Source: an uncultured Clostridia bacterium | GTDB lineage: Bacteria > Bacillota > Clostridia > TANB77 > CAG-508 | Direction: 5' to 3' | DNA length: 64,000 nt | Assembly: GCA_934130975.1 (NCBI GenBank) | Contig: CAKOYU010000006.1 | Span: 14,372-78,371, forward strand | Part shown: positions 7,300-9,816 of the stretch, one piece after another | Layout of the letters: every line of letters starts with the position of its first letter | How positions within the stretch are numbered: the stretch's first letter is position 1 | Notes under the pieces: generated by a model | Database searches by the model: none | Told to the model about the DNA's origin: nothing | The model's input: only the letters and a program-made list of their open reading frames with translations | Translations under genes and position numbers: made by a program

Positions 7300-7420
7300 C
7301 GCCCAAAGTGGGACTGTACAACCCGCGTTGGAAAAATAATCTACAAGATTATTTTTACCTTCGTTTCGGCAGGCCCCAGTCCTGCTCGAAACTTGGCAAT
7401 CTCCTTTTCGAGTCTCACAA
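7300..7420 (-). repeat. Direct repeat DR-A (~122 bp): tRNA-Leu 3'-end mimic plus conserved structured arm
   Basis: 96% identical to 9565..9685. The minus-strand 3' end ...GGGTTGTACAGTCCCACTTTGGGC mimics the tRNA-Leu 3' end GGGTTCGAGTCCCACTTTGGGCACCA. It contains an 11-bp perfect hairpin AAAAATAATCT/AGATTATTTTT. Confidence 0.8.
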
Positions 7421-7432
7421 TTTAAGTAAAAT

Positions 7433-7463
7433 AAAAAAATGTAGCGTTTGCTACACTTTTTTT
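7433..7463. terminator. Rho-independent terminator (A-run, TGTAGC-GTTT-GCTACA stem, T-run), bidirectional
   Basis: Perfect 6-bp stem flanked by A8 and T8 runs. Confidence 0.55.
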
Positions 7464-7526
7464 CAGGTTTTACTAGATCATTGCCAATTTTAAAGCATTA
7501 CTATGTATTAAATTGTAACTGTTATA

Positions 7527-8243
7527 TTATCTTTTATTATTTTGTTTAAAGTTATTTTTTGGTTCGCATACACTTATAAAGCTTTTAAAAATGTTATTCA
7601 TATTTTTATCTATTTGGTATAAACTTTCTGGATGAAATCTTACACCTATATAAAAATCTTTGTCTTTTGCTTCAATAACATCTGCATAGCTATCTTCACA
7701 AAATCCAACTTTATTTAATTTTGGACAGTCTTTTATAGTTCGTTTATGTCTTGAATTTACCATAATTTCTTCTTCATTTACTATCTTATAAAATTTAGAG
7801 TTTTTATCTATTTTTATGTTGTGCACATACAGTTTTGATATTTGCATATGTTTTTCGGGATTGTCTATTTTATAAGTTGTTCCACCAATTGCTCTAGCAA
7901 TAATATTCTGTCCACAACAAATTCCAAGAGTAGGTACATTATTTTCATAACAATACTTTGCTACAATACATTCATAATTATCTGATTTAGCACCGCCTTG
8001 GAAAATTATTCCATCACATAATCTTATTTGAGAAATTAAGTCATCATATTCTTTTCCTTGTAAATCTTCTTTCCAATTATCTTCTATATACTTTATATCT
8101 TTATCTGGTGGTAATATCGCTATTGCAACTGCTCCATTATCAAAAATTGCTTGTTTGATTTCATCTCTAACATATGTATCTGTTCTATCATTTTTATAAC
8201 TAGCATAATGTTTGCTCACAATTCCTATTACTGCTTTCTTCAT
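7527..8243 (-). CDS. class I glutamine amidotransferase-like / peptidase C26 (gamma-glutamyl hydrolase family)
   Basis: Catalytic Cys in GICCGQN and His-Glu in RFHPES. RBS AGGAAA precedes the start. Confidence 0.75.
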   Translation of the reverse strand: MKKAVIGIVSKHYASYKNDRTDTYVRDEIKQAIFDNGAVAIAILPPDKDIKYIEDNWKEDLQGKEYDDLISQIRLCDGIIFQGGAKSDNYECIVAKYCYENNVPTLGICCGQNIIARAIGGTTYKIDNPEKHMQISKLYVHNIKIDKNSKFYKIVNEEEIMVNSRHKRTIKDCPKLNKVGFCEDSYADVIEAKDKDFYIGVRFHPESLYQIDKNMNNIFKSFISVCEPKNNFKQNNKR

Positions 8244-9468
8244 TTTTTATTTCCTTTCCGCTTTCAACTAATTTATATAATTTTATACTAACTAATATTT
8301 CTATAATTGATAATATAAATAATATTGCTATTACTATAATCATAGGATTATTTACTAAAATCATTGTAAAGCTTAAACTCATTATTGCTCTTCCTATCTT
8401 TCTTGATAATTCCATTGTTGTTAATAACGATTGTTGTCTTTCTTTTCCGACCTTTCTTAATGCTAAATCTTGCATATATACTTTAAATGGATCTCTAATA
8501 AATAGTATAATTATATATCCTAAACTCATAATGCTAAATTGGGATATTACTGAGTTTCTAATAAATGAACCCAGTATCATTAAAATAATAGATATACTCA
8601 ATAATATTGGTAAAATTACTCCTACTTTTTCTTTATATTTACGATGTATCTTGTTAAAGACCATATTAGAAAGAACTCTTATTATACGAGAAATACATAA
8701 TATAGTACCTATTATTAGAGTTGTTTTTTCTACATCAAATTTCATTAGTAATTCTTGTTGTATAAATAGTTTTCCATTTGATTGTCCAGAATTTACAATG
8801 GGGTAGAAGAGACCATAAGAAATAATTAATACTATAATTAACTTATTATAATTTATTTTTGCTTTAGATTTTATTTTGTTTTCTTCTTTAATTTTATTGT
8901 ATTTAGAATAATCTACTATATAAAATGATAATATAAAGCATATTAAGCAAAAAGTAATGCAACCTAACATAGGTAAATAATTATTTAAATTAAACATTAA
9001 ACTTGCAATAAATGAGATAATCATTGTTACTGTCGCATATATGGTATTAGATTTTGTTTTTACTTTTATATATTCATTATTCCTATTTTGCAATTCAAGA
9101 TTATTTTTTAATACTGCATTTGCCATATTCTGAAATGTAAATGCAATTTCATAAATAACCTTTCCTAAAGCTATGACTATATAATTTTTTCCAAATGTTA
9201 ATAATAGGCTAGACACTAGCAATAACATTGAGCCTAATCTTACTGAATTTGTATTTCCTATTTTCTTAATAATTTTTAATAGTGGTATTTGTAATGCTAT
9301 ACAAGTTATTAATGATACAGTAGTTAAAGAAACTATCTGAGCTGCATTAAAATTTTTTACAACTGTTAAAAATAAGGTATCTATTGCTACCCAAAACAGT
9401 AAATCACCTGATAGACCTGCATACCAAGGAAATATCTTGTTAAATTTTTCCATCTTTTCTTGTTCCAT
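8200..9468 (-). CDS. MFS-type membrane transporter
   Basis: About 12 predicted TM helices. An ATG at 9468 is preceded by GGAGG. The gene overlaps the downstream amidotransferase gene by 44 nt. Confidence 0.7.
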   Translation of the reverse strand: MEQEKMEKFNKIFPWYAGLSGDLLFWVAIDTLFLTVVKNFNAAQIVSLTTVSLITCIALQIPLLKIIKKIGNTNSVRLGSMLLLVSSLLLTFGKNYIVIALGKVIYEIAFTFQNMANAVLKNNLELQNRNNEYIKVKTKSNTIYATVTMIISFIASLMFNLNNYLPMLGCITFCLICFILSFYIVDYSKYNKIKEENKIKSKAKINYNKLIIVLIISYGLFYPIVNSGQSNGKLFIQQELLMKFDVEKTTLIIGTILCISRIIRVLSNMVFNKIHRKYKEKVGVILPILLSISIILMILGSFIRNSVISQFSIMSLGYIIILFIRDPFKVYMQDLALRKVGKERQQSLLTTMELSRKIGRAIMSLSFTMILVNNPMIIVIAILFILSIIEILVSIKLYKLVESGKEIKNEESSNRNCEQTLC

Positions 9469-9564
9469 TTTTTCCTCCAATTTGTCTTTTTCTACATAAT
9501 AGCATAAATATTTTAAAATTAGAAGTTATATAAATAGAAAAGTCAAAATGTTATTACTGCATCT

Positions 9565-9685
9565 GCCCAAAGTGGGACTGTACAACCCGTGTCGGAAAAA
9601 TAATCTACAAGATTATTTTTACCTTCGTTTCGGCAGGCCCCAGACCTGCTCGAAACTTGGCAACCTCCTTTTCGAGTCCCACAAT
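9565..9685 (-). repeat. Direct repeat DR-B (~122 bp), paralog of DR-A, immediately downstream of tRNA-Leu
   Basis: Five mismatches relative to 7300..7420. Same tRNA 3'-end mimic. On the minus strand a 5' GTGGGACT can pair with the 3' AGTCCCAC. Confidence 0.8.
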
Positions 9686-9690
9686 TAAAA

Positions 9691-9728
9691 ATCAAAAATA
9701 AAGAAACACAGAAAAATCTGTGTTTCTT
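9691..9728 (-). terminator. Terminator hairpin after tRNA-Leu (12-bp stem AAAGAAACACAG/CTGTGTTTCTTT)
   Basis: Perfect 12-bp inverted repeat followed on the minus strand by ATTTTTGA. Confidence 0.5.
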
Positions 9729-9733
9729 TATTT

Positions 9734-9816
9734 CTGGTGCCCAAAGTGGGACTCGAACCCACATGGTTTCCCGCACGATTTTGAGTCGTGTGCGTCTGCC
9801 AGTTCCGCCATTCGGG
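9734..9816 (-). tRNA. tRNA-Leu (anticodon CAA), long variable arm, CCA encoded
   Basis: The reverse complement reads GCCCGAATGGCGGAACTGGCAGACGC...GACTCAAAATC...GGGTTCGAGTCCCACTTTGGGCACCA, with anticodon loop CTCAAAA. Confidence 0.85.

Follow-up and report, generated by a model that had tools for sequence, protein, structure and literature searches.

Behind the tRNA-Tyr gene of the Escherichia coli K-12 tyrT-tyrV locus lie tandem repeats known as RtT, whose role has been unclear since 1991. Searching this trailer (NC_000913.3, 1285600-1287800; our locus L100) with the Rfam model RF00391 places three RtT units, of 134-138 bits, at 1111-1242, 1289-1420 and 1467-1598 on the minus strand. Each 178-bp unit ends in the last 19 nt of tRNA-Tyr. 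Some 100 nt upstream of this end stands GGGGAAGGAT, the T-stem 3' region sequence ATCCTTCCCC of the tRNA in reverse complement. The Rfam consensus pairs GGGGAAGGAT with the tRNA-like 3' end and leaves ccaCCACCA free; the annotated rttR RNA ends at that CCA of the unit. rttR is reported to be an RNA product of a tyrT repeat unit (PMC3318445), and the role of RtT is still called unknown, possibly tied to stress or the stringent response (bioRxiv 10.1101/2024.07.17.603846). The 3' ends of tRNA genes also collect mobile DNA: cis-mobilizable elements (CIMEs) and tandem accretion at these ends are described in Streptococcus and other Firmicutes (PMC5704250). Here we analyze a locus that recalls both systems. 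It lies in a 64,000-nt stretch of DNA, the window, from an uncultured Clostridia bacterium (assembly GCA_934130975.1, contig CAKOYU010000006.1, positions 14,372 to 78,371), where two repeats follow a tRNA-Leu(CAA) gene. We lean, with modest confidence, towards reading both repeats as units of a tRNA-anchored array of an undescribed element, which we call S, that also serves as a secondary attachment site.

An earlier note on this DNA, made from the sequence alone, had described two direct repeats downstream of tRNA-Leu(CAA), each ending in that tRNA's 3' end, and a two-gene cassette between them. This description was borne out. Aligned over 7300-7422 and 9564-9686 on the minus strand, the two units are 95.1% identical, with 6 differences in 123 positions, and ARAGORN, Pfam and a terminator scan give the same minus-strand order: tRNA-Leu(CAA), terminator, unit B, a major facilitator superfamily (MFS) transporter gene, a GATase/Peptidase_C26 gene, terminator, unit A and a Bro-N gene. 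The parts that define the array, in which 'mimic' denotes the copy of the tRNA 3' end, are as follows.

9735-9817, minus strand: tRNA-Leu(CAA), the anchor (ARAGORN; Rfam tRNA model, 54.2 bits).
9693-9736, minus strand: intrinsic terminator of tRNA-Leu(CAA), with a 20-bp stem and a T-rich tail, immediately 5' of unit B (terminator scan; inverted repeat).
9561-9685, minus strand: repeat unit B, the DR-B of the earlier note (covariance model, 138.9 bits; fold z-score -4.6).
9671-9682, ~9588-9673, 9580-9587 and 9564-9579, minus strand: 5' arm, core, linker and mimic of unit B (from the sequence).
7433-7475, minus strand: eroded tRNA-end remnant ACCTGAAAAAAAG plus second terminator (terminator scan; comparison with L005, L011 and L012).
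7433-7462, minus strand: the second terminator itself, immediately 5' of unit A (terminator scan).
7297-7421, minus strand: repeat unit A, the former DR-A (covariance model, 131.5 bits; alignments; fold z-score -3.5).
7407-7418, ~7324-7409 and 7301-7315, minus strand: 5' arm (one mismatch, GTGAGACTCGAA), core and mimic of unit A (from the sequence).

Two sequences of tRNA-Leu(CAA) are copied into the units: the 3' end, AGTCCCACTTTGGGCA, and the T-loop plus T-stem 3' strand, TTCGAGTCCCAC. The mimic of unit B comprises 16 nt of the tRNA 3' end and reaches the discriminator A. The 15-mer AGTCCCACTTTGGGC occurs three times in the window (in the tRNA at 9739-9753, and at 9565-9579 and 7301-7315), whereas 0.01 occurrences are expected from shuffled sequences. 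The second copy, overlooked in the earlier note, is inverted: the arms of unit B (GTGGGACTCGAA, 9671-9682) and unit A (GTGAGACTCGAA, 7407-7418) are the reverse complement of TTCGAGTCCCAC. Both units fold better than shuffled sequences on the tRNA strand, and unit A carries substitutions at junction positions that are near-invariant in other copies. Scanning the 64-kb window with a covariance model built from relatives, only these two sites score; the next best reaches 12.5 bits. S is neither a tRNA nor a tRNA pseudogene, as ARAGORN and the Rfam tRNA model call only the genuine tRNA-Leu and S lacks the 5' acceptor strand, the D arm and the anticodon arm. Its G+C content is 46-47%, compared with 26-30% for the window.

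S is not confined to this locus. Genome and metagenome scans placed it in about 55 loci (numbered with an L below), with or without cassettes. The exact core 19-mer identified 12 real loci in species-representative genomes, all of them gut Clostridia metagenome-assembled genomes or Clostridium sp. CAG:452, together with one viral contig; further metagenome loci were reached by a hairpin pattern. Chance matches in high-G+C DNA accounted for about 35 of 74 metagenome matches, two viral matches and one genome match. At every real locus S lies on the tRNA strand, 5-22 nt past an intrinsic terminator that follows an intact tRNA gene or an ...ACCA remnant. The preceding tRNAs are of at least six kinds: Leu-CAA (window, L005, L011, L012, L076 and L083), Leu-TAG (in several lineages), Leu-TAA, Gln-TTG, Glu-CTC and Arg-ACG, the last seen in a single short contig, where the arm has one mismatch to it. 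Three further tRNAs have genes that fall outside the fetched DNA. Intact arrays of 2-3 units are found in L005, L006 and L052, and a cassette-free form, tRNA-terminator-core-mimic-terminator, in many loci. No protein family recurs beside S across the ~55 loci; the neighbours, a few of them examined with Pfam, are ordinary host or cargo genes. Searches of Rfam 15 at gathering thresholds and at E <= 10 returned only the tRNA plus chance matches over the repeats, a blastn search with the repeat matched none of 50,697 phage or 72,556 plasmid records, and the core sequence is absent from the searchable literature and from the first 200 of 408 supplementary files of a human-microbiome structured-RNA catalogue.

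Both ends of S are tailored to the adjacent tRNA. Over 12-15 nt the 5' arm is perfectly reverse-complementary to the T-loop plus T-stem 3' strand of this tRNA; the Leu-TAA type departs from this by an additional A that breaks the match. At the 3' end, S copies the T-stem 3' strand, acceptor strand, discriminator and CCA, with 9-50 nt in common, and the mimics of the relatives carry the full NCCA. The T-stem of tRNA-Gln is mismatched (GGCGG/CCTCC) and the S arm behind it reads GGAGG, indicating that the arm complements the 3' strand CCTCC and is no copy of the 5' strand GGCGG. In many loci a second copy of the same terminator follows the mimic, and the right boundary of this duplication differs between loci, extending at L082 and L031 into another arm or the opening bases of another core. 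We considered a fixed target-site duplication and rejected it because this boundary is variable; decayed tandem arrays fit better. Concerted evolution with the adjacent tRNA, selection for pairing and a target-copying mechanism are possible ways in which S could be re-tailored behind a new tRNA. Mixed copies occur as well. At L018 (2880-3010, 3x coverage) the 5' arm of S fits tRNA-Leu(TAA) and its 3' end mimics tRNA-Leu(TAG); at L047 (536-800) a terminator and then an S with ends tailored to tRNA-Leu(TAG) stand behind tRNA-Arg(ACG). Such copies could have arisen by genuine recombination across the core and tRNA ends that they share, or they could be assembly chimeras.

One S unit consists of the 5' arm, a core of about 85 nt with a three-way junction, and the 3' mimic. 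In the predicted fold the arm pairs with the T-stem strand of the mimic and closes the structure, leaving the acceptor/CCA tail single-stranded. We aligned 23 distinct copies to this fold, which has 34 pairs in five helices: P1 (arm with the mimic T-stem strand), P2a, P2b, P2c and P3. Standard pairs fill 95.8% of the alignment cells, and 11 of the 34 pairs show compensatory changes on both sides. The covariation score is 0.258, compared with 0.096 or less after sliding the partners by 1-3 columns, and none of 500 shuffles reaches the observed value. Five of the covarying pairs are in P3, two in P2b and four in P1, where they track the tRNA (4/5 P1 pairs change on both sides); P2c is invariant, in part because it served as a search pattern. 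G-U pairs are common (columns 25-65, 21-90 and 18-93). On the opposite strand these would be C-A mismatches, which assigns the fold to the tRNA-sense strand.

The core is conserved far more strongly than its surroundings, at 96-98% identity, versus 52-78% for the flanks and ~70% for the terminator and spacer. Between L004 and L089 the core is 97.6% and the tRNA 98.7% identical, while the terminator/spacer has diverged to 70% and the upstream 1.4 kb to 78%. L010 and L014 share 96.5% of the core and 94% of the tRNA between unalignable flanks. Even L004 and L015, which follow tRNA-Gln and tRNA-Leu-TAA, respectively, have cores 97.6% identical although their tRNAs and flanks are unrelated. The core is thus under constraint as strong as that on the tRNA, and its fold is strand-specific and selected.

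An S unit re-creates the tRNA 3' end, often together with the CCA and the terminator, and so provides a second copy of the sequence at which elements integrate. Integration is seen in L026, where a 5.4-kb element (7147-12530) fills exactly the space from ...CATCCGCACCA of an intact tRNA-Leu(TAG) to the terminator preceding S. Its genes are those of a 642-aa large serine recombinase (Resolvase + Recombinase) and a Mob_Pre relaxase, together with a 202-aa open reading frame (ORF). The junction reads ...CCGCACCA|ATGACGTATCTGTTCGAAC, an insertion at the CCA end that leaves the tRNA intact, and the corresponding site is empty in L057 and L061, where S is present. Left ends of the form A(T/C)(G/A)ACG(T/A)ATCTGTTCGAAC are joined to the mimic ...GCACCA in L026, L057, L061, L002 and L078, and the related left-end sequences ATAACGAATCTGTTCGAAC and ACGACGTATCTGTTCGAAC abut mimic ends in L026, L057 and L002; the mimic is thus used in the manner of a real tRNA end. 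The junctions of the L026 element have only the short block GCACCA(A) in common. The reconstructed attP contains ...CGCCGTTGGCACCAATGACGTATC..., with an imperfect dyad (11/20 positions) around CA. Two other centres are equally good, so the exact crossover position is putative.

Serine-recombinase integrative and mobilizable elements (IMEs) with site specificity usually integrate inside genes (PMC5704250), unlike the L026 enzyme, a large serine recombinase that acts at a tRNA CCA end. By module make-up alone (Resolvase+Recombinase plus Mob_Pre), the element resembles the Tn4451 type; it differs from Tn4451 in targeting a tRNA 3' end or mimic, and no such genes occur in the window. Other elements target the same tRNAs at the anticodon loop. 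In L071 (2401-7700) a tyrosine-integrase gene lies right behind tRNA-Leu(TAA), and in L002 (4590-4632), L052, L070 and L078 a prophage right end, comprising the tRNA 3' half from the anticodon loop, lies directly upstream of the terminator plus S. In L082 a truncated second unit, of which only the arm is left, is followed by a 454-aa ORF (465-1829) that we take, from its N-terminal sequence, to resemble a RumA-type methyltransferase. Another gene for a large serine recombinase, truncated where the contig ends, lies farther along at 5129-6037; in tblastn its similarity to the L026 enzyme is only weak. In streptococci, serine-recombinase IMEs are known to target rumA (PMC5704250).

In the window the inserts beside S lack a recombinase. 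They comprise the following features.

7476-9563, minus strand: cassette 1, recombinase-less (Pfam; absent or replaced in L005, L011, L012 and L076).
8200-9480, minus strand: MFS transporter gene (MFS_1) of cassette 1 (Pfam).
7527-8243, minus strand: class-I glutamine amidotransferase gene (GATase/Peptidase_C26) of cassette 1 (Pfam).
6297-7299, minus strand: cassette 2, recombinase-less (Pfam, promoter scan, relatives).
7268-7240, minus strand: promoter-like site of the Bro-N gene (promoter scan).
6370-7206, minus strand: Bro-N/DinD-like gene of cassette 2 (Pfam).

Cassette 1 starts right after ...TTTGGGCA of unit B (9564), and its other bound is the remnant ACCTGAAAAAAAG with the terminator (7433-7475). 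The counterpart of this remnant in L005 is ACCAGAATAAAAATG; by this comparison, the piece 7433-7475 is apparently the old CCA-plus-terminator part of the next array unit and the right junction of cassette 1. The left-end motif of cassette 2, AATTTTCAAACTTTTTTTCG, is common to other cassettes of the window lineage.

Five loci have flanks 95-96% identical to those of the window, with a clpC-like gene on one side and a P-type ATPase gene on the other. The earlier note had proposed a comparison with relatives at this locus, which shows the cassettes to be missing or exchanged: L005 has no cassette, L012 and L076 have others, and L011 and L012 differ downstream. In L005, three tandem units with no cassette between them are followed by small remnants and, ~270 nt past the array, a Resolvase-domain fragment. 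A 1.2-kb cassette, X, lies between two units in L012, and a different cassette of 3.2 kb in L076; L011 has cassette X and has lost most of its second unit by internal deletion. Behind the last unit the Bro-N gene is found in the window, L011 and L076, and another gene in L012. It is precisely with the stop codon of the P-type ATPase gene (6296) that the shared sequence sets in again. Given these shared flanks and the cassette differences between relatives, 6297-9734 is a variable island built on an S-unit array.

Left junctions in the window lineage fall at or next to the 'CA' of mimic C72-A73 (GGGCA|GATG..., GGGCA|CAAAAA..., GGGCA|CTAAAA... and GGGCACCA|AGAC...). Right junctions in the relatives read ...G-CA-CCAG plus terminator; that of the window is eroded (AAAACC|TGAAAAAAAG), and clearer tRNA-end remnants, ...GACGGCACCA|, are present in L012, L076, L063 and L088. 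The MFS/amidotransferase block and the Bro-N gene thus look like decayed, recombinase-less, CIME-like inserts whose junctions appear to lie at or next to this CA. They share with CIMEs the lack of a recombinase, bounds made of tRNA 3'-end copies, a tandem position beside a tRNA gene and variability between strains, and Pfam finds only MFS_1, GATase/Peptidase_C26 and Bro-N in the segment, with no integrase or transfer genes. For tRNA-Leu(TAG) lineages the L026 element is an autonomous relative at the same attachment site, and the tRNA-Leu(CAA) lineage has only the Resolvase-domain fragment of L005. The att repeat of a classical CIME is the scar of the element; here, in contrast, the extra tRNA-end copies belong to S and are present without a cassette.

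The motif AAAATTTTTCGAACTTTTTTTCG, with variants, stands behind the mimic at five junctions into three cassettes (window 7275-7299; L011 ~3305-3330 and ~4480-4505; L012 ~2023-2050 and ~3310-3335; L076 after 4990); it may be a common element end (a P' arm) or part of the original flank of the array. An identical amidotransferase gene occurs in at least 23 gut-metagenome contigs, every time in the arrangement of the window. Contigs L094, L095, L096 and L099, which carry exactly this gene, start 319-508 nt upstream of the MFS gene, in or near the tRNA/S region; assemblies probably break near the S repeat. The GC skew is +0.15 to +0.28 on the plus strand throughout the window, which places tRNA-Leu(CAA) and the island 6297-9734, both on the minus strand, head-on to replication, an unusual orientation for a tRNA gene. 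Elsewhere in the window, a full-length OLE RNA (RF01071, 320 bits) lies at 14893-15445 on the plus strand, and the 176-aa ORF behind it (15507-16037) gives a weak CNNM-type transmembrane match; the organism is a Firmicute of 26-30% G+C.

What could the conserved core do? Its likeness to RtT suggests, tentatively and at somewhat less than an even chance, that S acts as an RtT-type RNA. Both consist of tandem units, variable in number, that stand immediately behind a co-oriented tRNA gene and end in the 3' end of that tRNA. Each has a 5' segment that complements the 3' region of the T-stem; it pairs with the mimic, closes a multi-helix domain and frees a ...CCA tail. An S RNA would be made on the tRNA strand by read-through of the terminator or, in some lineages, from its own promoter, and would be trimmed at its tRNA-like 3' end, as is RtT. 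A promoter overlapping the terminator is plausible in the lineages of L024, L031, L004 and L067 (e.g. TTAGCA-17-TATACT). In the predicted fold of a read-through transcript, the T-loop/T-stem 3' half of the tRNA pairs with the S arm and the tRNA 5' acceptor strand pairs with the mimic; most of its energy of -112 kcal/mol (z-score -9.3) comes from the terminator hairpin and the inverted repeats.

The two families also differ. The core sequence, the inner helices and the phylum are not the same, and S, unlike RtT, has an intrinsic terminator between itself and the tRNA. Its arm spans T-loop and T-stem, that of RtT the T-stem and a part of the acceptor strand. At least six tRNAs are followed by S with re-tailored ends; RtT is known only behind tRNA-Tyr. 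Other RNA or coding functions were considered and rejected. A small ORF after the Shine-Dalgarno-like AAAGGAGG does not keep its frame between copies. The position after terminators suggested a group II intron remnant, for which neither domain V features nor an Rfam match was seen. TnpB omega-RNA, retron non-coding RNA and T-box were rejected on context, there being no adjacent TnpB or reverse transcriptase and no Rfam match.

Several observations weigh against S as a tRNA-anchored, RtT-like element that doubles as an attachment site. The likeness to RtT is one of architecture and does not imply homology: with RF00391, S gives no match at the gathering threshold in the window and none at E <= 10 over 7200-9850. 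Expression is documented for RtT (PMC3318445), whereas S is known from DNA sequence alone. No convincing promoter lies 5' of either copy in the window, and a strong terminator with a 20-bp stem separates S from the tRNA. The mimics of the window lack the CCA, that of unit B ending at the discriminator and that of unit A at C72. The cassette junctions of the window are without the clear recombinase-end motif of L026 and L002. No recombinase was found in the window, either by tblastn with serine and tyrosine recombinases and a relaxase over the 64 kb or with Pfam, applied to ten ORFs in 329-16037, and we infer that of the window lineage from the gene fragment in L005 alone. The mimic may serve for attachment merely by being a copy of the sequence, and this would say nothing about the role of the core. 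In addition, all relatives were collected through exact core patterns, so that the invariance of the searched stretches arises partly by construction, and the sample comprises pattern-matching relatives, with more distant members lying outside it.

The earlier note had read the repeats as attL/attR scars of tRNA-targeting elements, with the ~100 nt of shared sequence as an attP arm brought in by each cassette. Part of this stands, namely an integration hotspot holding an integrase-less insert between tRNA-3'-end-like sequences: the repeats do bracket a cassette and end in the tRNA 3' end, the cassettes vary between strains, and decay to recombinase-less CIMEs with tandem accretion is well documented (PMC5704250). 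The repeats as the element's own scars, and the attP arm, do not hold up, and we regard this explanation as unlikely. The core is present without a cassette and stays constant when cassettes differ; in many loci S directly follows the tRNA and terminator, with just a terminator copy after it. L057 and L061 have S without the L026 element, which inserted upstream of S, and cassette X occurs both with and without a following S. The same core stands behind at least six tRNAs with both ends re-tailored, and strand-specific covariation and G-U pairs are unexpected of a double-stranded, protein-bound arm. Moreover, serine-recombinase sites are short and have no arms. The repeats could instead be a functionless by-product of unequal crossing-over or slippage near a tRNA gene. 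Tandem units in copy numbers of 1-3 are what unequal crossing-over between tRNA end and mimic would yield, yet this explanation is hardly credible in view of a core 96-98% identical beside coding DNA at 52-78% and a terminator at ~70%, compensatory changes that keep three helices, 46% G+C in a 28% genome, and arms exact for several tRNAs. The alternative named in the earlier note, a tRNA-derived leader RNA, fared better in its first half than in its second: S may be a tRNA-linked RNA, but it is very improbable as a cis-acting leader (promoter, attenuator or processing signal) of the following gene. The window copies do lie 85-95 nt upstream of a same-strand gene, the L024 type has a promoter-like site just 5' of S, and AAAGGAGG inside S is a perfect Shine-Dalgarno-like sequence. 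The downstream genes, however, are unrelated between loci and a terminator copy follows S in many of them; no start codon lies at a usable distance from AAAGGAGG, and indels break the frames. In the window, the copies have no promoter and the Bro-N gene has its own promoter-like site.

Is S itself mobile? It could be a small non-autonomous DNA element that targets the T-arm/3' end of tRNA genes through a folded single strand or guide-like pairing, with its enzyme encoded elsewhere. We consider this rather doubtful, though several features are in keeping with it: near-identical cores behind different tRNAs in different species, tandem arrays, a T-stem-to-terminator segment duplicated on both sides of S, an arm-mimic helix that reproduces the duplex sequence of the T-stem in the tRNA gene, the lack of a linked protein gene, as in elements that exploit a host enzyme, and the possible recombinants L018 and L047. 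On the other side, no clean empty site for S was found (the candidate, L011, is an internal deletion), the right boundary of the flanking duplication varies as in decayed tandem arrays, and the T-loop of the mimic never matches that of the tRNA, which speaks against a recent crossover in the loop. The 168-bp unit has no cargo, L018 may be an assembly chimera at 3x coverage, and in the window the folding strand is the leading-strand template (positive GC skew on the plus strand, S on the minus), so that a lagging-strand hairpin is unsupported here. In a more specific form, which we hold to be a long shot, S would be a programmable targeting molecule (RNA or folded single-stranded DNA), a constant scaffold with two exchangeable ends that directs a recombinase encoded elsewhere. 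Its 5' arm would pair with the sense strand at the T-loop/T-stem and its 3' tail with the antisense strand from T-stem to CCA, serving either the spread of S or the recruitment of mobile cassettes to that tRNA. If true, this would explain near-identical cores behind different tRNAs with exactly re-tailored ends. Known systems offer partial parallels. Like attC and the CTX phage attP hairpin, S has two inverted target-like segments ~95 nt apart, a strand-specific fold and no adjacent recombinase gene. Unlike attC, it has no GTTRRRY/RYYYAAC core (its 3' end is GGGTTGTAC, where GTTGTAC departs from GTTRRRY), no link to intI or Xer was seen, and sequence as well as structure is conserved; the cassettes at S show ordinary double-strand-type junctions with inverted half-sites, unlike folded single-strand sites. 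By the generally known traits of the IS110/IS1111 bridge RNA/seekRNA, S is alike in that it could read both target strands and keeps its scaffold constant while specificity varies by copy. It differs in that the gene neighbourhoods of ~55 copies hold no DEDD recombinase, in that its matching segments are terminal instead of being internal loops, and in that it has no donor-binding part. We do not favour a folded-DNA or guide role, given the lack of a linked recombinase, the lack of a clean empty site and folding on the leading-strand template.

Returning to S as a tRNA-anchored array, it represents a conserved, structured and tRNA-tailored family of uncultured gut Firmicutes that is new to Rfam 15, to phage and plasmid collections and to the literature queried by sequence. 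The RtT architecture of E. coli is no one-off: a second, unrelated family has the same design, an inverted T-arm segment combined with a copy of the tRNA 3' end. Because S stands behind several tRNAs, it offers comparative leverage on the function of such trailers. In practice, the S repeat probably breaks assemblies and may create chimeric contigs. A chromosome can gain extra tRNA-end attachment copies, and several mobile elements can stack behind one tRNA gene while the gene itself stays untouched; this bears on how genomic islands are read and on locating the attachment sites of serine recombinases in metagenomes.

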